Source of the DNA: an uncultured Anaerolineales bacterium
GTDB taxonomy: Bacteria > Planctomycetota > Phycisphaerae > FEN-1346
Direction: 5' to 3'
NCBI GenBank assembly: GCA_964397995.1
Contig: CAYNLG010000002.1
Coordinates: 34,444 to 98,443, forward strand
DNA length: 64,000 nucleotides
Shown: piece after piece, positions 20,918 to 51,092 of the stretch
Layout: each line of letters begins with the position of its first letter
Numbering within the stretch: position 1 is the first letter of the stretch
The notes under the pieces: generated by a model
What the model was told of the DNA's origin: nothing
What the model saw: the letters and a program-made list of their open reading frames with translations, nothing else
The model's database searches: none
Made by a program: the position numbers and the translations under genes

Positions 20918-21133
20918 GGCGATGTCCTCGCGTTCGGGTGCGTCTCGGCCGGGCGGCCGAAAGAAACCTCTCACCCCCTCGTATAGGGCCCTGCACGGCC
21001 CGGGTCAACGGTTTTCCAAGGTTCCCCGCCACGCGGCCGCGCGGCTTGAAGGCCGGCTCCCCGGCTGGTACACTGATGCCGCGCGGCAGCGGCCGCCCCG
21101 GCCGCCGCGCCGAAGGAGACCCGCGTGCAACCG

Positions 21134-26900: not shown

Positions 26901-27187
26901 CGCGGGCGGGTGTCATGGACGAGGGGGGGCGCACCGCCCTGCCTCGCCCAAGCCCCGGCGCATACGACAGCCCCGCACGGCATGTGCCGCGCGGGGCCGC
27001 CTCACGTCATCCGCAGACACAGGCACCCCCGCGGACGGGCCCCACGTCGCCGGGCGAGTGCGGCTCGGGTCGAGCGGCTCCCTCAAGCCTTCCCGTGCCG
27101 CGTCGCGCCCGTCGGGCGCCGTCCGCGTCGGCGCGTCCCGCGCGGGCCGTCAACCCGCGTGCCATCGGACGCGCCGCGAATGCTGCG

Positions 27188-28453
27188 TTACGTACGGCGA
27201 CGGCGCGCGAGCGCCAGGCCGCCCAGGGCCAGCAGACTGAGCGTGGCCGGCTCAGGCACCGGGTCGCCCTGATAGGCCCCGATGTGCGTCCCGTCCGTGG
27301 CCGCGTTCAGGGCCGGCGAACCGACCAGCAGGGCATAGAACTCCTCGGCCGTAGTCCCGTCGCGGTTCAGCAGCGGGTCGGCCAAGAGGAAGTCGGTGAA
27401 GATGAAATCGTCACCGGTCGTGGTCCAGCCAACGTCGCCCTGGGCACCTGGCCACTCCTCCGGATAGGCGTAGTCCGGGTACCAGCTGTCCTCGGAGTAG
27501 TTGTTGAAGAAGAGGCAGGTGTCGATCTCGACGTCGCCCGCGAGCCCGCCCGTCGAGTTTTCGCCATTGTAAATGGCGTACCACAGGCACTCGGCGAAGA
27601 GGTTGTCGCGGACCTCGATCTTGGTAGCGTCGTAGGTGGCACCGACATTGTCCCAGAAGGCGAGGAGCTGGCTGCTGTAGTCGCCGGCCTGGAGCCACTG
27701 GCCCATCTTGCCATCGAGTGTGTTGTGGGTGACGCTGAGGGTGCGCGTGCCGCTTGGGCTGCCGGTCGCGCCCCCCTGGATGACGATGCCCGCTCGGCCA
27801 CCGCTGATGTAATTGTATGAGATGTCGGTGTGACCGGAAGCGGCGGGGTCGTTGCCGGTCTCCCACCAGATGACGCCTTGGCCGCTCGTGCGCGTGGCCG
27901 AGTGGAAGAAGTTCCCGGTACACGTGAACGATTCGGTGCCCTGGAGGTAGAGCCGCTTGGAGTAGTTGTTGTACACCTCGTTGTTGCGGAAGGTGAAGGT
28001 GGTGTCCGCCTTGGTGTTCCAGATGGCCGAGCGGCAGTCGTGGATCTTGCAGTTCTCGACCGTCCAGCCGGTGTGGGCCGACGCAGCGTTGCCTTCACCG
28101 ATGCCGTAGCCGTACTGATTGCCGGACTGGTGTGTGATCTCCAGGCCGCGCACCGTCACGCCGTCGGCGTTGATGACGATCTTGTTAGCGTACTTGCTGG
28201 TGGTGCTGACGAGGGTCGGCATGGCTTCGCCGGCTGCGCCTTGCAGGACCAGGTTCTGCTGGCCCAGGCTGAGCTGCGGCTCGACATAGGTCCCGGCGTG
28301 GACGGTGACGGTATCGTTGGCCCCGGCCGCGGCGAGGGCGTCGGCGATCGTGCTGTAGGCATAGCCGCTTCCGACGTGGAGCTCGGCGGCCATCGCTGGC
28401 ACGGCCGAAAGCATCCCGAAAGTCGCGGCAAGCATGAGTGTGAAGCGTCGCAT
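27188..28453 (-). CDS. PEP-CTERM sorting-domain protein with right-handed beta-helix (pectate-lyase-like) domain
   Basis: Signal peptide MRRFTLMLAATFGMLSAVPAMA. NxG/beta-helix repeats. C-terminus VPEPATLSLLALGGLALARRRRT, the canonical PEP-CTERM layout (PEP, TM helix, Arg cluster). Confidence 0.8.
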   Translation of the reverse strand: MRRFTLMLAATFGMLSAVPAMAAELHVGSGYAYSTIADALAAAGANDTVTVHAGTYVEPQLSLGQQNLVLQGAAGEAMPTLVSTTSKYANKIVINADGVTVRGLEITHQSGNQYGYGIGEGNAASAHTGWTVENCKIHDCRSAIWNTKADTTFTFRNNEVYNNYSKRLYLQGTESFTCTGNFFHSATRTSGQGVIWWETGNDPAASGHTDISYNYISGGRAGIVIQGGATGSPSGTRTLSVTHNTLDGKMGQWLQAGDYSSQLLAFWDNVGATYDATKIEVRDNLFAECLWYAIYNGENSTGGLAGDVEIDTCLFFNNYSEDSWYPDYAYPEEWPGAQGDVGWTTTGDDFIFTDFLLADPLLNRDGTTAEEFYALLVGSPALNAATDGTHIGAYQGDPVPEPATLSLLALGGLALARRRRT

Positions 28454-28498
28454 GGGTGTCTCCCTTTTCTCTCCCGGGAGGAGAGGCAGGTTCATGAA

Positions 28499-29461
28499 TT
28501 ACTTCCGGCGGCGGCGCGCGAGCGCCAGGCCGCCCAGGGCCAGCAGGCTGAGGGTCGCCGGCTCAGGGACGTTCGAAATCTCAACGTTGTCGAAGAGGAA
28601 CCCGCCACCCAGGTTGCCGATGTCGGCTCCGCCGGCGTTCCGGAACATGAGCGAATCGACGGCCTGCTCGCGCGGCCCCTCGGCGGGGCCAGCGTAGTAC
28701 GATTCCCACGTCGTGCCGGTGTGCTTGAGGTCGCCGTCGATGAAGACCTGGACGATGTCGTTGCCGAACTGCTCGCCGCCGACGTCCTGGAGGCCGTCGA
28801 CGAACTGGATCAGCATCTCGACACGGTGGTAGTCGTCGTAGGACAGGCTGTCGGCAACCTGCGTGTAGTCGTCGCCGCCAAACTGCCCCCAGGGATCGCT
28901 CACCGAGCCGGTGCCGTAGAACCAGATGTCAATGCCGTCGACCCCGTTGTCCGAGATGCCGAGGTAGCCATTGCGGACGGTCGACTGCTTGGCCGTCGGG
29001 CTGAGGCTGAGACCCAAGCCGGTCTGCGGCGTGCCCGTGGCCGACTTGATGTCGAAGGCCGCGTAGAAGTACGGCGTCGCGGCGGGGCTGCCCGCGAGCG
29101 GGGGGTTGTTCGGGTTCGTATGATCGTCGCCGTAATCGTTGTAGAGGTAACTGCCGGGCTCGCCGGCGACCTCGTCGGTGGTCGGCGTGCACGGCTGGAA
29201 AGCGTACTCGGTATACGTGTAGGCGTCCGAGATGCGCCAGGCCTTGTTGCCGTCGCCCTCGACGATGACGGCCTCGTCGAAATCAACCGGCTTGCCCGCG
29301 TCGGTGGGGTCGTTGCCGAACGAGTCCTCGGTGGTCCAGCCTTCCTGGCCGTTGATCGGGCCGAGGGAGAACCCCTCGAAGTCGGTCTGGTAGGCCTGGG
29401 CCATGCCGGCGAGAAGCAGGGCCAGCGTTGTCGCGGCTGCCATACGTGTGATCGATTTCAT
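28499..29461 (-). CDS. PEP-CTERM sorting-domain protein (D/G/T-rich secreted cargo)
   Basis: Signal peptide MKSITRMAAATTLALLLAGMAQA. C-terminus VPEPATLSLLALGGLALARRRRK. Confidence 0.8.
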   Translation of the reverse strand: MKSITRMAAATTLALLLAGMAQAYQTDFEGFSLGPINGQEGWTTEDSFGNDPTDAGKPVDFDEAVIVEGDGNKAWRISDAYTYTEYAFQPCTPTTDEVAGEPGSYLYNDYGDDHTNPNNPPLAGSPAATPYFYAAFDIKSATGTPQTGLGLSLSPTAKQSTVRNGYLGISDNGVDGIDIWFYGTGSVSDPWGQFGGDDYTQVADSLSYDDYHRVEMLIQFVDGLQDVGGEQFGNDIVQVFIDGDLKHTGTTWESYYAGPAEGPREQAVDSLMFRNAGGADIGNLGGGFLFDNVEISNVPEPATLSLLALGGLALARRRRK

Positions 29462-29530
29462 GGTCAGTCTCCGTGGTAGCTACCGCCCGGGGCGCGGGCG
29501 TGCCGCGCCCCGCGGGCGGGTCGGGTTCGC

Positions 29531-30424
29531 TTAGCGGCGCTTGCGGCGCACGAGCGCCAGGCCGCCCAGGGCCAGCAGGGACAGCGTCGCCGGCTCGGGC
29601 ACGGCCACGTCGTGGCTGAAGAAGTACTCGCCCGGGTCGAGCGTGACGGCCTCATCGAGTTCCCAGACGAGCCGCCAGATGGGGTCTTCCTTGCCGGGGT
29701 CCCAGCCGCTGTAGCGGCGCGCGACGCCCGTATCGCTCCAGGAGAACGTGCCGGCGGTGGTGTCGCTCGTCAGCACGTCGCCCTGGAAACTGCCCGTGTC
29801 GGTGGGCATCAGGTAGCCGGCATCGCCGCCGGCGCCCGCGACCGAGGAGAAGATGTTCATCCGGTAGGTGATCCGCGGGTCGTCCGGATCGAAGTTCCCG
29901 TAGTACCCCGTGCCGTCGAAGTAGCCGATGAGCGTGTCGACGGTCGTGGCTTCGGTCAGCTTGAAGTAGCCGCTATAGATCCAGTCCTCGTTGTTGGACA
30001 TGCCGTAGCCCATGTAGAGGCCGGCAATGGGATTGGCGCTCTGGTTGAGCTCGTTGTTGTAGTAGTCGTCCGGGCCGTAGGGGTCACCGTTCTCGATCAG
30101 GTTGTTGTCGAAGACGGTGGCGCCCTCGTTCTTCATGGTCAGGGCGATGCCGCTGTTCTCGGCGAACCAGTCGTCGCGAACCCACTGCTGGGTGGCATAC
30201 CCCGCGTTCGGGTCGTCGGTGACGAAGCGGAAGACACCGCCGGAGCCGTTGTCGCCGTTGACGGTCTGGCCGTTCGGGAACTGGCTCCCGCTGATCCAGT
30301 AGTAGAGGCCGAACGTCGTGGTGCTGTACTCGATGTGGCCGTTGAAGTCCGGGTGCGTCTGGGCCATGGCGGCCGGAGCGGCCAGCAGCATGGCGGCGAG
30401 GGTCATAAGGGTCAGGCGCTTCAT
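29531..30424 (-). CDS. PEP-CTERM sorting-domain protein
   Basis: Signal peptide MKRLTLMTLAAMLLAAPAAMA. C-terminus VPEPATLSLLALGGLALVRRKRR. Confidence 0.8.
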   Translation of the reverse strand: MKRLTLMTLAAMLLAAPAAMAQTHPDFNGHIEYSTTTFGLYYWISGSQFPNGQTVNGDNGSGGVFRFVTDDPNAGYATQQWVRDDWFAENSGIALTMKNEGATVFDNNLIENGDPYGPDDYYNNELNQSANPIAGLYMGYGMSNNEDWIYSGYFKLTEATTVDTLIGYFDGTGYYGNFDPDDPRITYRMNIFSSVAGAGGDAGYLMPTDTGSFQGDVLTSDTTAGTFSWSDTGVARRYSGWDPGKEDPIWRLVWELDEAVTLDPGEYFFSHDVAVPEPATLSLLALGGLALVRRKRR

Positions 30425-30556
30425 GGTAGCACTCCTTGGTTTCGTGCGGTTTGCTTGCGTTTCAGGGGTGCGGGCGACGTCGTTGCCGCCTCGCGGTCAG
30501 TCCCGCCGGCGGGGCGCGCCCCGTGGCGCACCACGCGCGGCCGGGGTCACGTTCGC

Positions 30557-31405
30557 TCAGCCGCGGCGCCGGCGCACGAGCGCCAGGCCGCCCAGGGCCA
30601 ACAGGGACAGCGTCGCCGGCTCGGGCGCGAAGTTCACCTGCGACGTGACGGTCGTCGTGTCGTAGGTCAGCGTGGCGTCCCAGTTGTCGAGCTCGGCGCA
30701 GATCTCCGCGACGGCCCGGTCCAGCGTGTCCTGCTTCGTGTCGCCGTCCTGGTACCAGTACTCGCCGTCGTCGTAGTAAACGGCGTAGGCCATGCCGAAG
30801 TGGCCAACGATGTCGGAGATCGTGTTGGTCGGATTGGCCGCGTCCCAGTCCTCGACGGTGCCGCTCATAACGAGGGTGCCGTCGGCGGCATAGCCGACGC
30901 GTTTCTCGGGGTCGAAGGTGGTGCTGGAGTCAAACGAGACGGCGCTGCCGTAGAAGCTCTCGTAGATGGCGTAGTCGGTGTCGCCCCAGCCGTCCTCGTA
31001 AACCTCGATGCCGCCGATGTTGGCCAAGCTGAGGGCCTCGCCGGCCGTCGCCTCGACGCGGTACACCCAGTGGACGCGGTGGCCGTGTTCGCCGGTACCG
31101 GTCTCGGCCACGCCCTGCCAGCTGTCAAAGCCGGTCGCGAGGGCCTCGTAGCACGGTCGTTCGCCGCTCTCGCCGTTGGTGGGGCTGAGGACGTTGAACG
31201 TGCCGTTGCCGGTACCATAGGTACTGAGGCCGTTCATGACAGCATACTGTGCATTACTCCACCACTCGTTGAAGCTGGTCCCGCCGGCGTACGCGTTGCC
31301 GGCGTTGCTGCCGAGCAGCGAGACGGCAACGGTCTCCACGCCGTAGGCGTTTCCGGCCGCGACCAGGAGGGCGGCGGCCGCCGTGATGCTGAGAAGGGTC
31401 TTCAT
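30557..31405 (-). CDS. PEP-CTERM sorting-domain protein
   Basis: Signal peptide MKTLLSITAAAALLVAAGNAYG. C-terminus APEPATLSLLALGGLALVRRRRG. Confidence 0.8.
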   Translation of the reverse strand: MKTLLSITAAAALLVAAGNAYGVETVAVSLLGSNAGNAYAGGTSFNEWWSNAQYAVMNGLSTYGTGNGTFNVLSPTNGESGERPCYEALATGFDSWQGVAETGTGEHGHRVHWVYRVEATAGEALSLANIGGIEVYEDGWGDTDYAIYESFYGSAVSFDSSTTFDPEKRVGYAADGTLVMSGTVEDWDAANPTNTISDIVGHFGMAYAVYYDDGEYWYQDGDTKQDTLDRAVAEICAELDNWDATLTYDTTTVTSQVNFAPEPATLSLLALGGLALVRRRRG

Positions 31406-31465
31406 TGGTAGCTCCTTTGCCCACGCGGGGCATGGGGTTCGTTCGGTTGGGTTGGCTCTGTCGGG

Positions 31466-32161
31466 TTACTTGCGGCGACGGCGGGCGAACAGCCCGAGGC
31501 CGCCCAGGGCCGCCAGCGTCAGCGTGGCCGGCTCCGGCGTCATGTTGAAGGCCATGTCGAATTCGTAGTCCGGCGACCAGTCGGCGTAGGTCAGCCAGCC
31601 GGTCGGCTCATCGTCGGGCCGGTCGGCGTACTGCCACTGACCCCACGCCTCGCCCTCGACGGTTCGCCAGGCTCCCCCCCAACTGGAAGCTTCGTTCACG
31701 TTGGCGACGGCGCTGAACCAGTAGACGGTGCCCTCGGTCTGATCGAAGACCGGGTCGATGACGCCGGAGAACTTGCGGACCTCACCGGCGGGCTCCCCGC
31801 CGCCCCAGCTGACCGTCTGCACGAAGTCGGCGCCGAAGGTCGTGATGGTACTGGTCTGGAGCAGGGCGCCGGGGCCGCTGCCGGTGTCGGCGTAGATCGA
31901 AAGGTCGAACGAGGTGATGTCGGCCAAGGTGGCGCCACCACGGCTGGCCATCCACCACTCGGCCCCGTCGATGTCGGCGTTGCTGTTCTGGCACTCAAAG
32001 TCGCCGGCGTTCTTCCAGACGGCGTCGGTGTAGCCGGTGGCGTTCAGCGTCCAGAAGTTGCCGCCCGAGCTCATCGGGTGTTCGGCCTTGTAGGGCCCCG
32101 CCCACGCAACCGCGGCCGTCAGGGCCAGGCAGGCGGCAGTCATCATGTATCGCTTACGCAT
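31466..32161 (-). CDS. PEP-CTERM sorting-domain protein
   Basis: Start at MRKRYMMTAACLALTAAVAWAG (signal peptide). C-terminus TPEPATLTLAALGGLGLFARRRRK. An SD sequence AAAGGAG lies upstream. Confidence 0.75.
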   Translation of the reverse strand: MRKRYMMTAACLALTAAVAWAGPYKAEHPMSSGGNFWTLNATGYTDAVWKNAGDFECQNSNADIDGAEWWMASRGGATLADITSFDLSIYADTGSGPGALLQTSTITTFGADFVQTVSWGGGEPAGEVRKFSGVIDPVFDQTEGTVYWFSAVANVNEASSWGGAWRTVEGEAWGQWQYADRPDDEPTGWLTYADWSPDYEFDMAFNMTPEPATLTLAALGGLGLFARRRRK

Positions 32162-32311
32162 GTGTTCCTTTCTCCTTTTTCCCCTCTTCGGGGGAACGAT
32201 GTCGTCGTGCAGCCCGGCCCGTTCTCGGGCCGGATTCGTCTCCGGGCGGCGCCGCGCCGCCCGTTTCGGCACGGGCGCGGTCGCGTCCGGTCTTGGCTTC
32301 CGCTTCAGCGT

Positions 32312-33007
32312 TTACCGACGGCGACGGCGGGCGCACAGCCCGAGGCCGCCCAGGGCCGCCAGCGTCAGCGTGGCCGGCTCCGGCACCACGTGCACCGTGG
32401 AGCCCAGATACTCGACCGAGTCCGGGGCGCCCTGGGTGATAGCGGTGTCGGTCATCTTGTAGACATTGACGCCGTCGTGAACGGCGACATCGACGCCGAC
32501 GGTGGCGTCACCGAGCGAGACGGCCGTCAGCGTGCCTTCGAGCAGCCAGACCGGCCCCGAGGTCGAGTCCACGTTGCCGTAGTACAGGTACTCGGCCCCG
32601 TAGTTGTCATAGCCGCTCTCCAGCGGCGACGAGACGAAGAAGTTCACCAGGCCCCCGTTCGGGCCCCAGCTGGGCTTGCGCGTCAGCGTGGCCATGGCCG
32701 GCTGGAGCGTCACGTCCGGCACGTCCTGGCCGGGCGGGGGGACGGCGATGAACTTGGACTTGATCTCGACGACGCCGAGGTCCGACAGGAGCAGGTCCAG
32801 CGACGCGGCCTGGATACCCAGGTTCTCCGTGCCGAAGTAGACATTCTCGGTCACGGACGCCCAGACACGGAACGCCGTGCTCTGTCCGGGCACCAGTTCG
32901 GTCTGATCCACCTCGACCGAGAACGTCACGACAGAGGCCCAAGCGGCGGTGGCGCCGGCCAAGGCGATGGCGAATGCCACAACAAGAAGTGCGAGCACTT
33001 TCATTTT
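32312..33007 (-). CDS. PEP-CTERM sorting-domain protein (paralog of 36433..37122)
   Basis: Start at MKVLALLVVAFAIALAGATAAWA. C-terminus VPEPATLTLAALGGLGLCARRRRR. About 60% identical to the gene at 36433..37122 (VTFSVEVDQTELVPGQSTAFRVWA against VTFSVEVDDTELMPGQSTGFRVWA). Confidence 0.75.
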   Translation of the reverse strand, partial: KMKVLALLVVAFAIALAGATAAWASVVTFSVEVDQTELVPGQSTAFRVWASVTENVYFGTENLGIQAASLDLLLSDLGVVEIKSKFIAVPPPGQDVPDVTLQPAMATLTRKPSWGPNGGLVNFFVSSPLESGYDNYGAEYLYYGNVDSTSGPVWLLEGTLTAVSLGDATVGVDVAVHDGVNVYKMTDTAITQGAPDSVEYLGSTVHVVPEPATLTLAALGGLGLCARRRRR

Positions 33008-33592
33008 CGGTCCTTCCTCCTGCTGCATGGTGCGTGGACATGGTCCGCCTGCCTCGCGCCGCAGCACAGCGCGAAACGATGCGGCATCCCAGTGCTGTGT
33101 ATCACGTGTGTCCACGTTGCCTCATTCCTCTCCCGGCCGCGCACCCTCGGGGGCCCCTCGCCGCCCGTCGGCCGCGACCGCTTCGCGGGTCCGTCACCGG
33201 CACGTCCCATCCCACGCCGGGAACTGCCTATCCGCCGCCGGTCCGTTCCTCCTTGTGCCTCGTGCTTCGGTTCCTCGCGTGGCCCCGGCCGGCGTCCGGC
33301 CGGCCGGGCCTCCCTCCATCCCCGGCTCCCCCGCGTGCCGCGCACGGGGCCTTCGTCGAGCCCGGCCGGCAAGGCCGGCGCTCAAGGCTCTCGGCGGCTC
33401 TCTGCGACGGGTTCGCCGTCGCGGTTGCCTGGCGGCAGCCGTCGGCGCTGTCCGCGGGTCGCGGTGGTTCCGCTGGTGGGCAGTGCCCCTTCGGGCATGG
33501 GCGGCCCCGGCTGTGCCGGAACTCCGACCCTGGTGCGCCCACCGACGGCCGCGCCCCGCCGCCCCGGCCTGCGGGCCGAGACGCCCGCGCGC

Positions 33593-33781
33593 CTAGGCGG
33601 CCAGCCGCGTCGGCAACCGCATGGCGGGGGTCCGCCCGGCCCAGAGCCAGTCGGTCCAGGCGTCCCGCTGCAGACGCAGAATCGTGGGTGCCCCGTCCCG
33701 GGCGTCGCGGTGCGTCTTCGGCGGCGCCGGACGGGTCTCCGGGTCCATCAGGAACGACGTCTCGTGTCTCGGAATGACCAT
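33593..33781 (-). CDS. Small hypothetical ORF (62 aa), first of three tandem small ORFs
   Basis: Start at MVIPRHET. Ends in ...LAA like its neighbours. Weakest of the three. Confidence 0.25.
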   Translation of the reverse strand: MVIPRHETSFLMDPETRPAPPKTHRDARDGAPTILRLQRDAWTDWLWAGRTPAMRLPTRLAA

Positions 33782-33819
33782 CGTGGTCTCCCCCTTCGCT
33801 CTTGGCGAAGATCGTGGGC

Positions 33820-34008
33820 TCAGGCGGCCTCGCGGTACCGCGGCGCCTGGCGGCGGCCGCGCACCCGGTCGGCCAGGTGCGTACTGTGTTGGAATCCCCG
33901 CGGAATGCGGCGCTCGGCCCGGCTCTCGAGTTCGTCGGTGATGGCCAGGCTGAGTTGATCCAGCTCGTCCTCCGACAGGTTCCGAATGCGTCGCAGAAGC
34001 TTGTTCAT
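33820..34008 (-). CDS. Small hypothetical protein (62 aa), paralog of the next ORF
   Basis: MNKLLRRIRNLSEDELDQLSLAITDELESRAERR aligns with MTNEELLSLAVLNSDGVLDAVEAELDRRAG of ORF 34087..34290. Acidic helical, no signal peptide. Confidence 0.4.
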   Translation of the reverse strand: MNKLLRRIRNLSEDELDQLSLAITDELESRAERRIPRGFQHSTHLADRVRGRRQAPRYREAA

Positions 34009-34086
34009 CGTGTCCTCTCCCCCCGTTCGGGTTGCATGGGTCGATCCCAGGTAACGGTCTTCTGCACGGCGGATGCGCCCGTGGCC

Positions 34087-34290
34087 TCAGGCGGCCTGGG
34101 CCAGCCCGACGCGCGCCCGCGGCGCTCGCCGCTCGCACAACCGGCGGTACGTCTGGCTGATGCGGCACAGTTGGGCTTGGCCGGCGCGCCGGTCAAGTTC
34201 GGCTTCCACCGCGTCCAGCACGCCGTCGCTGTTCAGCACGGCCAGTGACAGCAACTCCTCGTTCGTCATGTGGTTCAATGCCATGGTCAT
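34087..34290 (-). CDS. Small hypothetical protein (67 aa), paralog of 33820..34008
   Basis: See the previous entry. The (E/D)EL..LSLA...D.(L/V)E.EL(D/E)RR core is shared. Confidence 0.4.
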   Translation of the reverse strand: MTMALNHMTNEELLSLAVLNSDGVLDAVEAELDRRAGQAQLCRISQTYRRLCERRAPRARVGLAQAA

Positions 34291-34366
34291 CGTGAGTCCC
34301 TTTCCCCTTGTTCTCCCCAGCGCCCGCCGCTCTCAGGCGGGCGCTGGCCGGCCGGGCGGCCGGCCC

Positions 34367-34771
34367 TTACGCACGTCGAAGCCGCGGAACCACCGGCGGC
34401 GCCTGAACCAGGGGCTCCAGCACCGCGTCCCATTCCAGCGCGTCCAGCGGACCCAGCAGCATCTGCACGCCGCGCACCCGGGTGAATACTTCCAGCCCGT
34501 GGTGCACGGCCTCGGTGTAGACGGCACAGAGCCGCGGGGGCACTTGGCGGAGGGCCTCTTCGAGGGCAGCCATCGCGGCTCCGGGCCGCTCGGTCGCGTC
34601 GAAGACCGCCAGGGTCACACCCGCCACGCTCTGCCGCACCACCTCCGGGTCCGGCGTCGCGAGCAGCCGCAACGAGAACCCGTCGTGCCTGGACGCCCAG
34701 TCGCTCAACGAGACCAGCAGGCCCTCGCCGGCGTAGAACGTCGTGATCTCTCGGTGCAACCGAACGATCAT
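34367..34771 (-). CDS. Hypothetical 134-aa protein, possibly a degenerate CheY-like receiver (pseudo-receiver)
   Basis: Alternating beta/alpha pattern (MIVRLH..., FSLRLLA, LAVFDA, RLCAVYTE, VQMLLGPL) with an acidic residue where the phospho-Asp would sit. The N-terminal DD pair and the conserved Lys are missing. Confidence 0.3.
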   Translation of the reverse strand: MIVRLHREITTFYAGEGLLVSLSDWASRHDGFSLRLLATPDPEVVRQSVAGVTLAVFDATERPGAAMAALEEALRQVPPRLCAVYTEAVHHGLEVFTRVRGVQMLLGPLDALEWDAVLEPLVQAPPVVPRLRRA

Positions 34772-35086
34772 GCGGTCGCCTCCTCTGTCGGCCACGGCTG
34801 CACCGACCGCCGGCACAGCGTGACGCCCTACCTAAGGCAAGTGCGATGCCAGCGGGAACGCGCATCGGAAAAAGGGCCCTACGCCATTGGGAAACAAGGG
34901 CTTACCGAAAAGCGATGGCCGCACGGTCGTCCCGACGGCCGCGACACAGCGCTGCAAGGCGCAGCGGAGAAGTGTCGCAGAATGCGGCGCGCGCCGCGGC
35001 ACGCACCGGGGCTACTCATGCCTGCCCGCAACACCGCGGGCGTGCGCAAATGACGGGGGGGGCACACAAGTGAGGGGATGTCGACC

Positions 35087-36037
35087 TCAGGCGACGCGGA
35101 GGCTATCCAGCTTCCGAGCCAGAGTGCTGCGGTGGATACCGAGGAGCCGGGCGGCCTCGGTCTGGTTGTCCTCGGCCAGCTGCATGGCGCGGCGAATGGC
35201 GATGCGCTCGGCGTCTTCCAGGGTCAATGCACCGTCCGGCACGTCCGTGGCTGCGGCCTGCGGACGCCTCTGGCCGAGCGACGCCGCCAAGACCTCCGCC
35301 GGCAGACCTGTCGCGTACAGGCGCTCGACCCAGGCCTTGAGCTCCCGCACGTTGCCCGGCCAGGGGTAGGCGGCCAGGCGATCGCGGACCTCGCGGCGCA
35401 CGGTGCGCGACTCGTACCCGGTGCGGAGGGCGACCTCCGGCAGGAAGTGGTCCAGCAGCGGGTCAATATCCTCGCGGCGGTCGCGCAGCGGCGGCACGTC
35501 GATGCGCACAACATCCAACCGGTAGTAGAGGTCCTCGCGGAATCGCCCCTCGTCGACCAGCTCGCCCAGACTCCGGTTCGTCGCGGCCAGGAAGCGCGTG
35601 TCGACCGACACCGGCCGCGTCTCGCCCACGGGGAGGACCTCCCCGTCCTGGAGCACGCGGAGGAGCTTGGCCTGCTGGCCGAGGGGAATCTCGCCGACCT
35701 CGTCCAGCAGGAGCGTCCCGCCGTCGGCACTGCGCACGAGCCCCTGGAGGCTCCGCTCCGCCCCCGTGAAGGCCCCGCGGACGTGGCCGAAGAACTGGCT
35801 CTCGAAGAGCGCCTCGGAGATGCCCGCGCAGTTGACCGGGATAAGCGGCCGGACCGCCCGCGGGCCGCGGGCGTGGAGGCGGCGGGCCACCAGTTCCTTG
35901 CCAGTCCCGCTCTCCCCCTCGATCAGGACCGCGCAGTCGCTCCGCGCGACAGTGTCGACCAGGTCGATGAGGCGGCAGATGGCATCGCTCGTGCCGACGA
36001 TCTCGGGAATCGGAATCGTGGGTTGCCGTAGAGGCAT
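35087..36037 (-). CDS. Sigma-54 enhancer-binding protein lacking any N-terminal regulatory domain (AAA+ sigma-54 interaction domain plus HTH only)
   Basis: Starts directly at the AAA+ core (MPLRQPTIPIPEIVGTSDAICRL...LIEGESGTGKELVARRLH). A GAFTGA motif (ESQFFGHVRGAFTGA). C-terminal Fis-type HTH (EAARLLGIHRSTLARKL). Confidence 0.8.
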   Translation of the reverse strand: MPLRQPTIPIPEIVGTSDAICRLIDLVDTVARSDCAVLIEGESGTGKELVARRLHARGPRAVRPLIPVNCAGISEALFESQFFGHVRGAFTGAERSLQGLVRSADGGTLLLDEVGEIPLGQQAKLLRVLQDGEVLPVGETRPVSVDTRFLAATNRSLGELVDEGRFREDLYYRLDVVRIDVPPLRDRREDIDPLLDHFLPEVALRTGYESRTVRREVRDRLAAYPWPGNVRELKAWVERLYATGLPAEVLAASLGQRRPQAAATDVPDGALTLEDAERIAIRRAMQLAEDNQTEAARLLGIHRSTLARKLDSLRVA

Positions 36038-36254
36038 GTGGCGGGTTGTCCTTTTCACCAAAGCAAAAACGGGCCGGCGGTTCACCACGAACCGCTGCGA
36101 CCCGTCTAACCCCGCCAGTTTGTCTTGTCCCGGCCAAGGCCGTACGGCGCCCCGGACCGTCCTCCTCCGGACACAGTATAGCACAAAAAGAGGGAAAGTC
36201 AAATAGCCATTGCGCCGCGTTTCTGACCAGCGGCTTCAATGGCAAGGAGACGTT

Positions 36255-36300
36255 GACAAAAATGCGCGGCCTCATCCGGGGGTGACCGGATGAAGCCGCC
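36255..36300 (-). terminator. Intrinsic terminator after the PEP-CTERM gene at 36433..37122
   Basis: A 14-bp imperfect inverted repeat GGCGGCTTCATCCGG-tcaccc-CCGGATGAGGCCGC on the minus strand, followed by GCGCATTTTTG. Confidence 0.45.
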
Positions 36301-36432
36301 CTATCGTGCCGCAAACACAGGCTTCCCCAGCCGGGGCGGGCCCGTCCTGCGGCGGACGGGAACCCGACCGGCCGGCGCGACTGGGCGCGGGGCCCGGGCG
36401 CGCCGGACCGGTCGGTCTAGACGCTCGTGCGA

Positions 36433-37122
36433 CTAACGGCGACGCAGCAGGCCCACCAAGCCCAGGCCGAGCAGCGCGAGGCTGGCCGGCTCGGGGACGA
36501 TGTGGACCTGGGCGCCCAGATATTCGACGCCCGTGGGCGGGCCCTGCGTGATCGCCGTGTCCGTCATCTTGTAGACGTTCACGCCGTCATGCACGGCCAC
36601 AGCCAGGTCGACGAAGGCCTCGACGGGCGACACGGCCGTCAGGATGCCTTCGACCAGCCAGATCGGCCCGGCGCTCGGCTCCAGCGACTCCACGTTGCCG
36701 TAGTAAAGGTACGGAGCGCCGAAGTTGTCGTAGCTGCTCTCCAGCGGCGAGGAGACGAAGAAGTTCGCCAGCCCGCCGTTCGGGCCCCACCCCGGCTTGC
36801 GCGTGAGCGTGGCCATATCCGGCTGGAGCGCCACGTCCGGGATCTCCTGGCCCGGAGGCGGCACGGGGATGAACTTCGACTGGATCTCGACGACGCCGGC
36901 CGCCGACAACAGCAGGTCCAGCGACGCCGCCTGGAGGCCCAAGTCATAGGCATCGAAGTACTGGTTGTCGCTGACGGCGGCCCAGACACGGAAACCCGTG
37001 CTCTGGCCAGGCATCAGCTCGGTGTCGTCCACCTCGACGCTGAACGTCACGAGCGACGCGTCGGCGGTCGCCACCAGCCCCGCCAGAACCACACCCAACG
37101 CTACCATCGTCATCCGCATCAT
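36433..37122 (-). CDS. PEP-CTERM sorting-domain protein (paralog of 32312..33007)
   Basis: Start MMRMTMVALGVVLAGLVATADA (signal peptide). C-terminus VPEPASLALLGLGLVGLLRRR. Confidence 0.75.
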   Translation of the reverse strand: MMRMTMVALGVVLAGLVATADASLVTFSVEVDDTELMPGQSTGFRVWAAVSDNQYFDAYDLGLQAASLDLLLSAAGVVEIQSKFIPVPPPGQEIPDVALQPDMATLTRKPGWGPNGGLANFFVSSPLESSYDNFGAPYLYYGNVESLEPSAGPIWLVEGILTAVSPVEAFVDLAVAVHDGVNVYKMTDTAITQGPPTGVEYLGAQVHIVPEPASLALLGLGLVGLLRRR

Positions 37123-37670
37123 GGTCTTCCCCTTCTTCTGCTGCGTCTTCCCGGATTCGGTGTTCCCGTTGTGCCCGATTGCATCCTTTACCCCGCGGCG
37201 TACACCACCGCGAGGGGGCGCTTCCGTTCTGTCTGTCCGTTCCGCCTCGGCTCCTTGCCGATGTGTCGTGGTCAAGGCATGAAAAAAGGCGGTCTTCGGC
37301 CGGGTGCTCCCTCCGAAGATCGCCCTGTTTAGCGATTCTGATTGTAGCGCCGACCGCGCCCTTGGCCGACCGGCGTGGGGCCCTTGGCTATCCCCGCTGG
37401 GCCCGACTGCGCTCCCCAAGTTGTCCTTCAACTGCAAACGGGCCGGTCGTTCGGTCCCTCCGAACGCCTCCGACCCGCGTATCCCGCCGGGGGACGCCTT
37501 CCACCGGGCGTTCTCCCGCTCAGAACGCACCAGCGCCAATCCCGCGACGTGGAACTATAGCCCAGAATTCGCGGAAGTCAAACGCGGCGGGGTATTTTCT
37601 CGACTTTTTTCAGTCGGCGTCTCACTGGGAACTGCCAAGCCACCCGGATATGACGCAAAACAAGAAAGGC

Positions 37671-39077
37671 CTACCCATTGGCGTCTGTGGAGGGAAAAGT
37701 CACGGAGAACGTCGTCCCCTGCCCGACTTCACTTTCGACCCCGATCGTACCGCCATGCATGGCCACCACGCGTTTGATGATCGCCATACCCAGCCCGGTC
37801 CCGTGCTGGACCGTCCGCTTTGCTTCCTTCCCGCGAAAGAACTCCTCGAAGACGCGCGGCAGTTCGTCCGCGGGGATGCCGATGCCCGTGTCGGCAACGG
37901 CCAGTTGCACGCGGCTCCCGGCACTCTCCAGGCCAACCGACACGCGGCCCCCCTCCGGCGTGTACCGCACCGCGTTTGAGACGAGGTTGTTCACCAAATC
38001 CGTCAGGCTCTCCCGTGAGCCGTTGACCACCGCCGACTCCGCCCGGACGTCCAGCGTGATGCCCTTCTCCTGGGCCTGAGCCCGGAAGAGGTCGGCGGCC
38101 GCCCGCACAACCTCCGCCAGTTCCAGGGGTTCCAACCGTTCCACGGCGGCTGCGCGGCGAAGGCGGCTGTAGCGGAGCAGATCGTCGATCAGGTCCAGCA
38201 TACTCTCCGACCGGCCAACCGCCCGGACCAGGAGTCCGCGCCCCTCCGTGTCCTCCGGCATCTTCAGCAGGGCCGTCTTCAGGAGGCTCTGGACGGCCCC
38301 GACGGGGGCGCGGAGTTCGTGGCTGGTCTTCCGCATGAACTGGCTCTTGACCTGTTCCAGCGACCTCAGGTCGTCGTAGGCGGCCTCCAGGTCGTGTTCT
38401 CTCGCCCGGAGGCGGCTGGCGATGCTTCCCGCCACAAAGACGGTCACGTAGACCGCGAAGGTCATCGCGAAGGTGACCTGACTGACGAAGATCCAGTGCT
38501 GGGCCACGTGTGCCCCCACTAAGGGGACACAGACCTCGGCCGCTTCGCCTCCCTCGCAGACGCTGAGCGTGGTATGTATCGCGGGGTAGAAGTACTCCCC
38601 CCAGCCAATCAGGTTGATGAGAACGGCTGCCAGCGTAGCATACCCGAAGGCGATCTTCGGGGCGAAGAACTCGCTGGCGACAATCATCGGGAAGACGAAC
38701 AGGATGATGAAGTGGTTCTCGACGCCGCCGATGAAGTGGACGAGGGCCGCCACGGCCAGCAGGTCGCACGTAATCTGCGCGTGGGCCAGACTCAGGATCC
38801 ACCGGCGGCGGATGCGGCGGCGCCGGTACAGCCACCGCGCCCAGACCGAGAAAACCGTGTTGTAGGCCAGCAGGACCCCGATGGCGGCGATCGCCGGTCG
38901 CAAGGCAAACCGGACGTCGAACAGCGTGTGGCCGATGCCCAGGAAGGCCATGGCCATCAGGCCCGCCCCCCAGCGGACGTGCGTGAACCAGCCCAGGCGC
39001 TCAAAGAGCTCCCGCTCCGAGAGCGTCAGATGCGCTGGCGGCGATGCGTCCAACGACTGGGGCGCCGTGTCAGACAT
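37671..39077 (-). CDS. Multi-TM sensor histidine kinase (HisKA + HATPase_c), candidate PrsK-like partner of the PEP-CTERM regulon
   Basis: An N-terminal ~6-TM sensor region. An H-box (TSHELRAPVGAVQS) and N/G1/G2 boxes (NLVSNAVRYTPEGG, DTGIGIPADE, GTGLGMAI). Confidence 0.8.
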   Translation of the reverse strand: MSDTAPQSLDASPPAHLTLSERELFERLGWFTHVRWGAGLMAMAFLGIGHTLFDVRFALRPAIAAIGVLLAYNTVFSVWARWLYRRRRIRRRWILSLAHAQITCDLLAVAALVHFIGGVENHFIILFVFPMIVASEFFAPKIAFGYATLAAVLINLIGWGEYFYPAIHTTLSVCEGGEAAEVCVPLVGAHVAQHWIFVSQVTFAMTFAVYVTVFVAGSIASRLRAREHDLEAAYDDLRSLEQVKSQFMRKTSHELRAPVGAVQSLLKTALLKMPEDTEGRGLLVRAVGRSESMLDLIDDLLRYSRLRRAAAVERLEPLELAEVVRAAADLFRAQAQEKGITLDVRAESAVVNGSRESLTDLVNNLVSNAVRYTPEGGRVSVGLESAGSRVQLAVADTGIGIPADELPRVFEEFFRGKEAKRTVQHGTGLGMAIIKRVVAMHGGTIGVESEVGQGTTFSVTFPSTDANG

Positions 39078-39098
39078 GGTCGAACCCGCCCGCCGGCC

Positions 39099-39893
39099 TC
39101 AGCCGGCGTTTCTCTCGGCCGCGGTGGCCTCGGCCTTGGCCTCACGGGCCTTGACGATACGAACGTCGCGGAACATCCAGAGGCCCATCAGCACCAGGAA
39201 CGGGCCGACCACGAGCAGAATGACCGCGAACGTCAGGTTCCGCTTGCCCTGCGTCTGGCCTGCCTCCTGCTGCCTCTTGATCAGTTCGTAGAGTTCGCTC
39301 TGGCTGGCCAGCATCCAGGCCAGGTCGGTCTCGTACTCCTTGCCGCCCATCTGGATGGTTTGCGTGGGGATGGGGTGGCCCTCGTCGCTCCACTTTAGCT
39401 TGTCGGCTCCCGGCCGGATCAGGTAGTCGATGCCCTGCGGGCTGGACACAAGCTCCCAGGCCTCCTTCTGGCCCACCTTGTCGGTCTTGGTGAAGATGGG
39501 GCCGAAGGTGCCCTGTTGCTTCGTGAGGCCCAGCTTGCCGAGGGCGCTCTGCACCTCCGTCTGGCCGCCGGCGGCCGTGAAGAGCAGTCCCGTGATGAGG
39601 GCGTAGACGGCGACGCCGGTGCAGACGATCCCAACGGCGATCGCCGGCACCCACAGGATCTTCTTGAGCGGCAGGTTGGCCGAGGCCCGGTCAACGGGCT
39701 TCCGCCGCGGGGCCTTGACCTTGCCGGGAAGGCGGCCACTCGGGGTCACCTTGGGCAGCGGGGCAGCGCCCTCGCCGCGGGCCTGTTTCATCTGCTCGAC
39801 CAGGTCATCGGCCCCGCTACGGGGGGCCTCGGGGGGCCTTGGGGTCTCATCCGGCACGTCGGTCTCCTTCGCAAGGCGGCTGAACGCGGACAT
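39099..39893 (-). CDS. Hypothetical membrane protein (two TM segments) directly upstream of the histidine kinase
   Basis: 264 aa. TM segments near residues 85-115 and 215-240. A 21-nt gap separates it from the kinase start. Confidence 0.45.
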   Translation of the reverse strand: MSAFSRLAKETDVPDETPRPPEAPRSGADDLVEQMKQARGEGAAPLPKVTPSGRLPGKVKAPRRKPVDRASANLPLKKILWVPAIAVGIVCTGVAVYALITGLLFTAAGGQTEVQSALGKLGLTKQQGTFGPIFTKTDKVGQKEAWELVSSPQGIDYLIRPGADKLKWSDEGHPIPTQTIQMGGKEYETDLAWMLASQSELYELIKRQQEAGQTQGKRNLTFAVILLVVGPFLVLMGLWMFRDVRIVKAREAKAEATAAERNAG

Positions 39894-40059: not shown

Positions 40060-41433
40060 ATGCCCGACCGCAACGACGATGCCGCCGTCCTCGATGACAC
40101 CACGCTGGCCCTGCTCCGCACCCTCCTCAAGACCGGCCGCGACGACGAAATCGCCGCCCTTCTCGGGCGCATGCACGCCGGCGACCTTGCCGACCTGCTG
40201 ACCGATTTCGACGAAGGCGAGACGGTCCGCCTTTTCGGCCTCCTTGATCCGGAAGCGGCCGCGGACGTTCTGGCGGAGGTCGACGCCGAAACCCGCGAGG
40301 ACCTGGTCGACGCCCTGCCCCAGGCCGAGTTCCACGACCTGCTGGGCGAGCTCGAACCGGATGACGCGGCCGACATCATCGGTGAACTTGAGCCGGACGA
40401 GGCCCTGGCGGCCTTGGCTGCCCTGGAGGACCGCCACGAAGTCGCGACGCTGCTGGAGTACGCGCCGGAGTCGGCAGGCGGCCTGATGACGACCGAAATG
40501 GTCGCCCTGCCCCGGGACCTGACGGTTGCGGAGGCCCTGGAACGGACCCGCGGGGCCTCGGAGACGACCCATCGCGACGTCCTTTACGTGACCAACGACA
40601 GCGGGCGGCCGGTGGGCCTGCTGCCCCTGGCAAAACTCGTATTCTCCCCTCCCGAAGCGCGGATCGTAACGCTGATGGAGCCCGACGTCCGGACCGTCCC
40701 CACCGACATGGATCAGGAAGAGGTGGCCGAGATCGTCCGCCGGTACGATTTGATCTCGGTGCCGGTTATCCGCCCGGACACGGGGCGCCTGGCGGGCATC
40801 ATCACCGTGGACGACATCATGGACGCCGTCGCGGACGAGGCCGCCGAAGACCTGTACCGGCTTGCCGGGAGCGGGGCCAGCGACCCGTTCCACCAGTCGG
40901 TCTGGAAACGGGCTCTGCTCCGACTGCCGTGGCTGATCATCACCCTCGGGCCGGGATTCCTTGTGGGCCAGATCATGCGGTGGCTCGGTTATGACCCCGG
41001 CGGCACGACGGCCCTGCTCCTTTTCGTGCCGGTGATGATCGAGATGGCCGGCAGCGTCAGCCTGCAGTCCGCCACGGTCATCGTGCGCGGCCTTGCGACC
41101 GGCGACGTGCGCAGCCACCGGACGCTGGCCATCCTCGGCCGCGAGGTCGCCGTCGCCATCCTCGTCGGCCTGGTCTGCGCCACCATCGCGGGGCTGGTGG
41201 GCTACGCGTTCTTCGGGGGGAGTTGGCCATTCGCGGCCTGCGTGGCGGCCAGCATGGTCTGCGGCGTATTGACGGCGGCCGTGACGGGGACCCTGGTGCC
41301 GCTGGGGTGTCACGCCGTCGGCGTCGACCCGGCGCTCGCCAGCGGGCCGTTCGTCACAAGCCTGAACGACGTCACAGGGACGCTCATCTACCTGGGCCTG
41401 GGCGCGGGCCTGCTCCGCGCGCTCGGGGGATGA
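40060..41433 (+). CDS. mgtE: Magnesium transporter MgtE
   Basis: N-terminal MgtE_N helical domain, tandem CBS domains (PVIRPDTGRLAGIITVDDIMD), and a C-terminal 5-TM pore domain. Confidence 0.88.
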   Translation: MPDRNDDAAVLDDTTLALLRTLLKTGRDDEIAALLGRMHAGDLADLLTDFDEGETVRLFGLLDPEAAADVLAEVDAETREDLVDALPQAEFHDLLGELEPDDAADIIGELEPDEALAALAALEDRHEVATLLEYAPESAGGLMTTEMVALPRDLTVAEALERTRGASETTHRDVLYVTNDSGRPVGLLPLAKLVFSPPEARIVTLMEPDVRTVPTDMDQEEVAEIVRRYDLISVPVIRPDTGRLAGIITVDDIMDAVADEAAEDLYRLAGSGASDPFHQSVWKRALLRLPWLIITLGPGFLVGQIMRWLGYDPGGTTALLLFVPVMIEMAGSVSLQSATVIVRGLATGDVRSHRTLAILGREVAVAILVGLVCATIAGLVGYAFFGGSWPFAACVAASMVCGVLTAAVTGTLVPLGCHAVGVDPALASGPFVTSLNDVTGTLIYLGLGAGLLRALGG

Positions 41434-41522
41434 GGCCGGCCGACAAAAGCCTTTCGCCCCCCGCGGGGGACTGGTACAATCCCGCACCGATGTCCTGAAT
41501 AGGGTCCTCACGAGACCGTCCA

Positions 41523-42122: not shown

Positions 42123-42127
42123 GTCCC

Positions 42128-42940: not shown

Positions 42941-42953
42941 AAGGGGAGATGCG

Positions 42954-44500: not shown

Positions 44501-44694
44501 ACTTGCACCTCCTTCGGGCCCGGGAAGGCCCCATCCCAGGGAATCATCGGACCCGCATCGGGGGGGCCTTCAGCGATTTTTCCACAACGCGGCACCGCCA
44601 GTCGCGTGCCCCACATTCCCCATAGCCCCCATTTTAACGCGGCGCGGCTCAGCACTGGTTGCACTGGGCCCCCGGTCACGATACAGTCCATGCC

Positions 44695-51027: not shown

Positions 51028-51092
51028 TGCCGGCGCTCCTTCCCCATGGAGGCGGCATTATAGGTCGAGCGTGGGGCGCTGCCAAGGGCCCG

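Follow-up and report, generated by a model that had tools for sequence, protein, structure and literature searches.

The closest described control system for genes encoding PEP-CTERM proteins, the substrates of exosortases, consists of PrsK, PrsR and PrsT, which are confined to Proteobacteria, with further regulators expected elsewhere (Haft 2006, PMC1569441). PEP-CTERM genes are normally dispersed and mostly form single-gene units with long upstream regions; Rhodopirellula baltica (R. baltica), for instance, has 12 of them together with one EpsH and no Prs genes (Haft 2006, PMC1569441). Here we describe a 64-kb stretch of DNA from contig CAYNLG010000002.1 (assembly GCA_964397995.1; the whole stretch is called the window below), placed in the Planctomycetota, in which seven PEP-CTERM genes (cargo 1 to cargo 7) lie beside a sigma-54 cassette made up of a receiver-less activator, an enhancer, a sigma-54 promoter, a stand-alone pseudo-receiver (PR) and small proteins that end in Ala-Ala. 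Comparison with the loci of relatives establishes the cassette, its promoter and enhancer, the fold predicted for PR and the Ala-Ala hallmark. We read the window, with moderate confidence, as a planctomycete surface-protein locus built around this cassette, in which PR would provide feedback, the Ala-Ala proteins would act as modulators and the cargo genes would be co-expressed. No description of the cassette was found in literature searches, nor in Pfam, NCBIfam or PADLOC.

Like the Prs set, the locus has PEP-CTERM genes next to those for an enhancer-binding protein and a transmembrane histidine kinase, and it includes a sigma-54 promoter. It differs in that PrsR has a phosphorylatable receiver, whereas the activator in the window has none, and in that neither a PrsK-type kinase nor PrsT was found here. 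The proteobacterial sigma-54 motif precedes individual PEP-CTERM genes, whereas here a single site lies ahead of PR, and the Prs set has neither a pseudo-receiver acting in trans nor small proteins with Ala-Ala tails.

Receiver-less enhancer-binding proteins that are controlled in trans are known from other circuits, namely PspF with PspA in the phage-shock system and HrpR/S with HrpV. The locus resembles these in having an activator composed of AAA+ and helix-turn-helix (HTH) domains only, and in having a candidate trans-regulator as the first gene of the operon, a layout suited to feedback. However, the candidate partner here is predicted to have a receiver fold rather than the PspA/ESCRT-III or HrpV fold, and, in contrast to the phage-shock system, the window locus contains no PspA-like or pspBC-like genes.

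The sigma-54 cassette and its conservation

The cassette and the promoter of its activator comprise the following features.

36175..36202, minus strand: sigma-70-like promoter upstream of the activator gene, TTGACT, 16-nt spacer, TATACT, with a TG extension; consensus match only
35087..36037, minus strand: receiver-less bacterial enhancer-binding protein (the activator), 316 aa, assigned with Pfam, start taken from an independent gene call
34951..34980, minus strand: putative enhancer (upstream activating sequence, UAS), CTGCGAC at 34974-34980 and TTGCAGC at 34951-34957, 23 bp apart
34837..34851, minus strand: sigma-54 -24/-12 promoter, TGGCATCGCACTTGC, one mismatch to the consensus
34367..34771, minus strand: PR, stand-alone pseudo-receiver, 134 aa, first gene behind the sigma-54 promoter
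34087..34290, minus strand: small protein A1 (sA1), 67 aa, ...EELLSLAVLN...AELDRRA...AQAA; E 3.6e-11 with the hidden Markov model (HMM) of family A
33820..34008, minus strand: small protein A (sA2), 62 aa, helical hairpin and disordered basic tail, ...YREAA
33593..33781, minus strand: small protein B, 62 aa, ...WAGR...MRLPTRLAA; gene called on a Logan contig

The window has a G+C content of about 70%, and third-position G+C was used to choose among reading frames. The exact gene calls for the activator, PR and the small open reading frames (ORFs) were also made on an independent metagenome assembly. For comparison we used metagenome loci around activator orthologues, numbered L004, L006 and so on: a first set of six, comprising the window and five orthologue loci on long contigs, and a larger set of 80 further loci from a metagenome scan keyed on the activator-family motif FESQFFGH. 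PR and small-protein genes in the fetched loci were detected with HMMs built from alignments.

The activator consists of an AAA+ domain and a C-terminal Fis-type HTH only (Sigma54_activat PF00158, 210.9 bits; AAA_lid_14 PF25601, 62.4 bits; HTH_8 PF02954, 42.2 bits), and the motifs GESGTGKE and GAFTGA are kept in its family alignment. It thus has the make-up of a bacterial enhancer-binding protein, and Pfam bears out the absence of a receiver that a first-pass annotation of the sequence had proposed. Its best 120 database relatives are 57-66% identical to it and almost all 304-331 aa long, with the same domains and no additional ones, and those with a named source come from Planctomycetota (Planctomycetaceae, Pirellulales, Thermoguttaceae, Phycisphaerae). 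Orthologues across the phylum share about 60% identity and nearly always have 314-320 aa. No NCBIfam equivalog cut-off is reached by the activator: it scores 269 bits against the PrsR model TIGR02915 (cut-off 502.6), matching model positions 112-440 only, and 232 bits against the PspF model TIGR02974 (cut-off 443.55). The activator is therefore not a PspF orthologue, and the resemblance between the two lies in domain architecture only.

The promoter upstream of PR is the best-scoring sigma-54 site in the window. In 24 of the 31 loci that have PR, an upstream site at a fixed distance from PR matches at least 9 of the 10 positions of TGGCAC-N5-TTGC. When a position weight matrix (PWM) trained on the other loci only was run over both strands of the window (128 kb), the site at 34834-34854 on the minus strand ranked first, with 17.5 bits. 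The only other match of 12 bits or more (rank 2; 45489-45509, plus strand, GAGGCACGGTGCTTGCC, 14.3 bits) lies inside the coding region 44638-45720 and is probably a chance match. A consensus-only scan for sigma-54 sites showed no enrichment across the window (47 found, 57.6 expected), and of the two approaches the comparative PWM alone was informative. Scanning for sigma-54 promoters, as the first-pass annotation had proposed for the intergenic regions of the minus strand, thus yielded one strong site, upstream of PR, and none upstream of any cargo gene.

Between the activator gene and this promoter lies the putative enhancer, whose proximal site is 106 nt upstream of the -24 TGG. When at most one mismatch per heptamer is allowed, 9 of 20 loci have a TTGCGAC pair with a spacing of 23-24 bp whose proximal member lies 102-107 bp upstream of the -24 TGG; the corresponding figure for background windows is 6 of 2108. 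Enhancer pair and promoter also occur together in L170, and in L169, where the PR operon does not adjoin an activator gene. The persistence of the enhancer in L169 away from an activator gene is as expected for a site bound by a trans-acting factor.

The elements recur in a shared layout on one strand, in which the activator gene is followed by the enhancer, the sigma-54 promoter, PR, genes for small proteins and often PEP-CTERM genes. Activator, sigma-54 promoter, PR and small-protein genes stand in this order in five of the six loci of the first set (the PR homologue of L006 has 37% identity, BLASTP 2e-25), and PR lies directly downstream of the activator on the same strand in 31 fetched loci. 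In the window, one PEP-CTERM gene (cargo 7) precedes the activator and six follow the small-protein genes, and the first-pass annotation had taken the 3.4-kb stretch in between for an insert that splits two paralogous cargo genes. That view was not borne out: the order PEP-CTERM gene, activator, PR, small proteins, PEP-CTERM gene recurs in the independent loci L131, L139 and L157, while L006, L128 and L134 show its upstream half before the contig ends and L004, L007 and L008 show its downstream half. Because this flanked architecture is found in unrelated loci with non-homologous cargo, the comparison indicates that the stretch is a conserved planctomycete cassette and not a local insertion.

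Some loci show peculiarities of their own. Four sigma-54-like sites (TGGCACGGCC[T/A]TTGCT and TGGCACGGCGCTTGCT) lie about 320 bp apart in L006 (9170-10150), where the promoter region upstream of PR is apparently tandemly repeated; the same interval contains a run of N, and the repeat may be an assembly artefact. In L004 (9260-10092), inserted transposase-like ORFs separate the activator from PR, whose gene is apparently shortened at its N-terminal end. A gene for MnmA (tRNA 2-thiouridylase, tRNA_Me_trans domains) lies directly upstream of the activator in L004, L008 and L170, an adjacency that amounts, on gene order, to conserved synteny in one sub-lineage. The PR operon of L169 encodes a 207-aa membrane protein (10780-11403) that matches PF20382 (DUF6677) and is the sole accessory member seen with a Pfam annotation. 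PADLOC gave only generic AAA+/HTH overlap with RtcR-type models, and the cassette was therefore not taken for a known defence system.

The pseudo-receiver and the Ala-Ala-tailed proteins

PR belongs to no Pfam or NCBIfam family. Response_reg of Pfam does not detect it even at E <= 10, sequence searches of the PDB, whether with the single sequence or with a profile, gave nothing meaningful, and a k-mer search for homologues returned PR alone. Relatives were found with an exhaustive phmmer search over 1.84 billion cluster representatives (E <= 1e-3), which gave a family of at least 184 clusters at 50% identity, nearly all of them free-standing proteins of 120-180 aa. An AlphaFold2 (AF2) model of PR, computed with 105 relatives in the alignment, has a (beta-alpha)5 topology with a mean predicted local distance difference test score (pLDDT) of 93.3 and a predicted template modelling score (pTM) of 0.86. 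Foldseek matched this model to 63 PDB entries at E <= 1e-3, and the best 50 are all CheY-like receivers with template modelling (TM) scores of 0.56-0.70, led by atypical receivers of CpaE/TadZ, PorX, CheY and PmrA (E 2e-5 to 8e-4); identity to any of the solved receivers matched is at most 22%. The model and its structural matches thus agree with the first-pass annotation, which had picked out PR as a pseudo-receiver candidate.

In the PR family, the Asp that closes beta3 is near-invariant, and the Thr of the VYTE motif, which closes beta4, is largely conserved. It lacks the acidic pair after beta1, where the consensus reads F-Y-P/A-G, and a Gly-Pro replaces the Lys-Pro of receivers, with Gly in place of Lys109. 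The family signature is IDAT, VYTE, LLLGP and EW. Near-invariant residues (D58, Y85, E87, L93, E94, R98, G101, G107, P108 and W114) lie mostly on beta4, alpha4, beta5 and alpha5, the face that receivers usually use for interaction. As modelled, PR therefore has a CheY-like fold but not the make-up of a phosphorylatable receiver. In this it resembles the N-terminal domain of CpaE/TadZ and the degenerate receivers that act in cis in FleQ/FlrA, which have a CheY-like fold without a complete phosphorylation pocket; the atypical CpaE receivers are also its top Foldseek matches (E ~2e-5). PR differs from all of these in being a free-standing protein of 120-180 aa encoded behind a sigma-54 promoter.

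One alternative is that PR and the activator are the two halves of a split NtrC-type protein. On this account, the histidine kinase of the locus would phosphorylate the Asp of PR, and phospho-PR would dock on the activator and switch it on, in a two-component pathway of three polypeptides. The receiver fold, the beta3 Asp and the VYTE Thr would all be accommodated, as would the position of the kinase, 2.9 kb upstream in the window's lineage. However, the Mg-binding acidic pair and Lys109 are missing, PR gives no Response_reg match, and most PR loci have no kinase nearby. Furthermore, PR lies behind the sigma-54 promoter and so could not start activation. We consider this pathway very improbable, and favour a role for PR in feedback on the activator.

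Behind PR, the three small genes (67, 62 and 62 codons) each have a GGAG-type ribosome-binding site upstream. Noted at first pass as three small ORFs, they are confirmed as genes by the calls on the independent assembly and by homologues elsewhere. The sA1 subtype also occurs in L095, L122, L123, L128, L131 and L139, sA2 is 41% identical to a 64-aa protein of L006, and small protein B is homologous to a 65-aa protein of L008, with WAGR...AA relatives in L098, L101, L170 and L131. Neither Pfam nor NCBIfam matches any of the small proteins. In the AF2 model of sA2, residues 2-33 form a helical hairpin (pLDDT >94), followed by a basic tail with pLDDT <50.

The feature that unites these proteins is their C-terminus. 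Without exception, the 34 complete members of family A from the fetched loci have Ala-Ala as their last two residues. A profile search for family A gave at least 304 clusters at 90% identity. Their proteins are almost all 76-80 aa long and lack Pfam domains throughout; of the 120 clusters retrieved, 115 end in Ala-Ala (RRAA in 62, RLAA in 21, RHAA in 11). The same end is seen in family B (RLAA), in family C, which consists of single-pass membrane proteins of 169-223 aa found in other loci (...RRAA), and, in L170, in PR itself. A reading of the small ORFs as leaders of ribosomally synthesized and post-translationally modified peptides (RiPPs) was dropped, because no maturation enzymes are encoded nearby and because conservation falls on the Ala-Ala end and not on a core peptide.

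A C-terminal Ala-Ala degron recognized by ClpXP is known from CtrA of Caulobacter. A terminal Ala-Ala-COOH is also a critical determinant of ssrA-type ClpXP degrons (PMC7142297, PMC10862746), and in the Streptomyces orphan sigma factor sigma-AntA, of which 67 of 71 orthologues end in Ala-Ala, degradation by ClpXP depends on these residues (PMC7142297). Family A, with 115 of 120 clusters, is like ssrA tags, sigma-AntA and CtrA in having a conserved terminal Ala-Ala-COOH on an exposed tail, and in this respect has a candidate ssrA-like C-degron. It differs from ssrA and sigma-AntA in that a whole set of unrelated operon products (families A, B and C, and sometimes PR) shares the tail, in the Arg-rich context (RRAA, RLAA, RHAA), and in that degradation is here predicted from sequence alone. 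Since screens in E. coli found a terminal Ala-Ala to be necessary but not sufficient for degradation (PMC10862746), we infer, rather than observe, by analogy with these proteins, that the tails are ClpXP degrons.

Two further observations concern the small proteins. A single protein of L139 (5965-6228) joins an A1-type N-terminus (...EELLLLRILNG...AELDRRA) to a family B tail (...FWAGRNMAHRRSALQAA), a fusion that suggests a modular build. The Joint Genome Institute (JGI) labels several family A proteins 'ribosomal protein S13' (P0277, P0286, P0291, P0299 and others), which is probably a mis-annotation because of their basic tail.

The cassette and the PEP-CTERM genes

The seven cargo genes of the window, and the intergenic features next to them, are as follows.

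27188..28453, minus strand: cargo 1, 421-aa PEP-CTERM protein with a right-handed beta-helix; PF07589 25.9, PF13229 37.5, TIGR02595 22 bits
28499..29461, minus strand: cargo 2, 320-aa PEP-CTERM protein with no further domain; PF07589 29.2, TIGR02595 26.4 bits
29531..30424, minus strand: cargo 3, 297-aa PEP-CTERM protein; PF07589 26.2, TIGR02595 24.5 bits
30557..31405, minus strand: cargo 4, 282-aa PEP-CTERM protein; PF07589 21.7 bits
31466..32161, minus strand: cargo 5, 231-aa PEP-CTERM protein with DUF7901; PF25470 30, PF07589 27.1 bits
32312..33004, minus strand: cargo 6, 230-aa PEP-CTERM protein, paralogue of cargo 7; PF07589 28.0 bits
33005..33592, minus strand: non-coding gap of 585 nt between the small genes and cargo 6; no sigma-54 site and no predicted terminator
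36266..36299, minus strand: hairpin resembling an intrinsic terminator after cargo 7, 14-bp stem and T-run
36433..37122, minus strand: cargo 7, 229-aa PEP-CTERM protein, immediately upstream of the activator; PF07589 28.1 bits
37277..37324, minus strand: conserved intergenic block, hairpin and T-run with a TTGACC hexamer just downstream
37554..37581, minus strand: sigma-70-like promoter between the kinase and cargo 7, TTGACT, 16-nt spacer, TATAGT; consensus match only

Each cargo protein has a Sec-type signal peptide and, read directly from the sequence, a C-terminal [VAT]PEPA(T/S)L motif followed by a hydrophobic stretch and RRRR. All seven exceed the PF07589 gathering score of 20.7 (21.7-29.2 bits), and six of the seven exceed the TIGR02595 cut-off of 16 (18.5-26.4 bits), cargo 6 not being listed at E <= 0.01. 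The HMMs therefore uphold the seven minus-strand PEP-CTERM genes of the first-pass annotation, as well as its beta-helix protein, which is cargo 1 (Beta_helix and NosD). Pfam recognizes DUF7901 in cargo 5 and no domain in the body of the other five proteins. The annotation was also right about the pair of paralogues, cargo 6 and cargo 7, although their identity is 70.6% over 214 aa rather than about 60%, and its start of cargo 6 at 33007 is corrected to 33004. An alignment of the regions upstream of cargo 6 and cargo 7 was no better than GC-rich noise. Cargo 1 to cargo 6 form a run of six tightly spaced genes (27188-33004), a density that had been thought unusual; tandem arrays occur elsewhere, however, as in L139, which has three PEP-CTERM genes in a row and one more. 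In cargo 1-4, the tails are encoded by DNA of 70-88% identity over 86 nt (27175-32387), while the remainder of the proteins is unrelated, which suggests recent duplication, tail shuffling or gene conversion.

PEP-CTERM genes are associated with the cassette beyond the window. Their tails were located in other loci with a conservative regular expression, of which two calls were checked with TIGR02595 (27.1 and 25 bits) and which gave zero matches in 1.28 Mb of unrelated sigma-54 activator loci used as a negative control. Among loci with at least 2.5 kb of flank, 8 of 19 with PR have same-strand PEP-CTERM genes downstream, compared with 1 of 14 without PR (Fisher one-sided p = 0.03). Overall, PEP-CTERM density is 0.65 against 0.29 per 10 kb. 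A PEP-CTERM gene lies immediately upstream of the activator, as cargo 7 does, in L006, L095, L122, L128, L131, L134, L139 and L157. In L007, PR, two PEP-CTERM genes and a diverged second copy of PR (7645-8016, 123 aa) follow one another within the operon, and in L139 the row of three starts about 150 nt after a small-protein gene. From the sigma-54 promoter to cargo 1 there is no predicted terminator, so that read-through into cargo 6 to cargo 1 is possible, and a strong one is predicted after cargo 7. The block at 37277-37324 has a counterpart at the corresponding position of L128, L131 and L137, with 81% identity over 48 nt, and may be the kinase terminator beside a promoter of cargo 7.

From these elements we propose the following course of events. 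The activator would be made constitutively from its own sigma-70-type promoter, bind the enhancer and fire the sigma-54 promoter. PR, as the first product, would bind the AAA+ ring of the activator through its conserved alpha4-beta5-alpha5 face, giving feedback of the kind that PspA exerts on PspF, and the Ala-Ala-tailed small proteins would be ClpXP-labile modulators of the circuit. Cargo 6 to cargo 1 would be expressed by read-through or be otherwise co-regulated, and cargo 7 would be a separate unit with its own promoter and terminator. A PilS-like kinase and its two-transmembrane (2-TM) partner, described below, would provide a lineage-specific input, and the exosortase that processes the seven tails would be encoded elsewhere in the genome.

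Several observations weigh against this proposal. About 40% of activator orthologue loci with enough flank have no adjacent PR (of the loci whose downstream flank reaches 1.2 kb or more, about 26 have PR and about 21 do not), and the proximal half-site of the enhancer in the window is degenerate, with two mismatches. The cassette is present without a PEP-CTERM gene in the available flank in at least 10 loci (L090, L098, L101, L104, L111, L114, L136, L143, L169 and L170), so that cargo appears, from these loci, to be an optional passenger. In the 600 nt ahead of each of 31 PEP-CTERM genes, the best PWM score is at most 5.6 bits (null median 0.9, 95th percentile 10.1), so that none of these genes has a sigma-54 site to itself. 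The 585-nt gap before cargo 6 is unconserved in relatives, and gaps of similar length (450-600 nt) precede the first cargo gene in L131, L008 and L004, again with no conservation of sequence. The enrichment in PEP-CTERM genes is modest and some of the loci are near-duplicates (L128, L131, L134). Cargo proteins are not homologous between loci, save for a weak match of cargo 4 to a 282-aa PEP-CTERM protein that ends the L008 module (BLASTP E 6e-10). We infer the link in expression between cassette and cargo from gene adjacency alone, and all the regulatory steps proposed above are likewise drawn from sequence.

Many of the same observations would fit a different explanation, in which the cassette is a self-contained regulon, for example an envelope or stress circuit, whose output is the small and single-TM Ala-Ala-tailed proteins, and the PEP-CTERM genes, plentiful in these genomes, are chance neighbours with promoters of their own. 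The module is complete without PEP-CTERM genes in L098, L101, L104, L114, L136, L169 and L170, and the missing sigma-54 sites, the unconserved gaps and the non-homologous cargo all fit independent genes, as do the single-gene units with long upstream regions that are the rule for this class (PMC1569441). Chance, however, does not readily account for the excess of same-strand PEP-CTERM genes at PR-positive loci and their higher density there, for the PEP-CTERM gene directly upstream of the activator in at least eight loci, or for the PEP-CTERM genes that lie between the PR copies of L007 and close behind the small-protein gene of L139. We therefore judge chance adjacency to be rather unlikely, while giving it serious weight, and keep the cargo genes within the proposed regulon.

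Kinase, exosortase and significance

Two further genes lie beyond cargo 7.

37671..39077, minus strand: histidine kinase, 468 aa, 6TM_PilS, HisKA and HATPase_c; no partner receiver in the locus
39099..39893, minus strand: 2-TM membrane protein, 264 aa, directly upstream of the kinase; no family match

Pfam and the gene calls confirm the multi-transmembrane kinase and the 2-TM protein that had been noted here at first pass; the latter has no match in Pfam or NCBIfam. The N-terminal domain of the kinase is a PilS-like six-transmembrane domain (27.2 bits, gathering score 27). The PrsK model TIGR02916 is absent among its best 25 NCBIfam matches, which cover the catalytic core only (residues ~215-468). 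Both regulators thus fail the Prs models, the activator because it falls far below the PrsR cut-off and has no receiver, and the kinase because it is not PrsK-like, and the earlier suggestion that control of this locus is non-canonical stands. Kinase orthologues with 67% identity occupy the same position in L128, L131, L133 and L137 only, with weak homologues of the 2-TM protein directly upstream in L128, L131 and L133. The kinase-bearing loci have the order 2-TM protein, kinase, PEP-CTERM gene, activator and share the small-protein subtype of the window, and the remaining module loci have no kinase. Because its orthologues occur only in these four loci, the kinase is, on present comparison, a lineage-specific addition without a receiver partner in view. 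A second sigma-54 activator, with a canonical receiver (VLIIEDEE...), is encoded 12 kb away on the plus strand (21077-22552) and is a possible partner for the orphan kinase.

Neither ORF reading, nor Pfam searches of the remaining unknown or membrane ORFs, nor tblastn with an exosortase fragment revealed an exosortase in the 64-kb window, in agreement with the first-pass annotation. In L143 (17658-18407), an N-terminal exosortase fragment with partial XrtD, XrtW and XrtA matches lies 5.7 kb downstream of a complete module, with no PEP-CTERM gene in between. The distance between cargo and exosortase, which had seemed unusual, is in keeping with the dispersed arrangement that is the norm for PEP-CTERM genes (PMC1569441). 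The statement that the window has no genes for extracellular polysaccharide (EPS) was not accurate: a Polysacc_synt_2 (CapD-like) gene and two NAD-dependent epimerase/dehydratase genes lie at 49097-53150 on the minus strand, and a gene for mannose-1-P guanylyltransferase (ManC) at 19841-20917, also on the minus strand.

These results bear on the reading with which the locus was first described, as a split island in which insertion of the module parted two paralogues, the kinase and activator form a dedicated two-component pair, and the exosortase has become separated. Cargo 6 and cargo 7, 71% identical, do flank the module, a kinase and an activator that both fail the PrsK/PrsR models are indeed present, and the 64 kb hold no exosortase. 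However, unrelated loci whose cargo is not homologous are flanked in this way too, most loci with the module lack the kinase, which is without a receiver partner, and PEP-CTERM genes commonly lie far from an exosortase (PMC1569441). An island split in this way is highly doubtful, and a locus built around a conserved cassette accounts better for the comparison.

Elsewhere in the surroundings, the interval 40060-43442 on the plus strand encodes an MgtE transporter, an extracytoplasmic function (ECF) sigma factor, a zf-HC2 anti-sigma factor and a 162-aa secreted protein, and is followed by a gene for a PilZ protein (annotation of L001). Rfam finds three tRNAs only in the whole window.

The regulation of PEP-CTERM proteins and other exosortase substrates outside Proteobacteria has been a standing question since the system was described in 2006, and sigma-54 biology in Planctomycetes is almost entirely uncharacterised. 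The locus offers a concrete, widely conserved and tractable cassette, with an enhancer, a promoter, an activator and a candidate trans-regulator, and it brings to light two protein families that neither Pfam nor NCBIfam detects, the stand-alone PR and the Ala-Ala-tailed small proteins. A more far-reaching and speculative idea, which we think improbable but worth stating, is that the cassette is a phylum-wide device that does without phosphorylation, in which a constitutively competent, receiver-less activator would be gated in trans by PR and by small and membrane-anchored proteins whose common Arg-rich Ala-Ala ends expose them to a single protease (ClpXP or FtsH). If so, a surface-remodelling regulon with exosortase substrates among its members would be tuned by regulated proteolysis and not by a kinase. 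The feedback circuit proposed here, if correct, would represent a new way to control an enhancer-binding protein and would offer a way into how surface proteins are expressed in a phylum whose cell biology is unusual.

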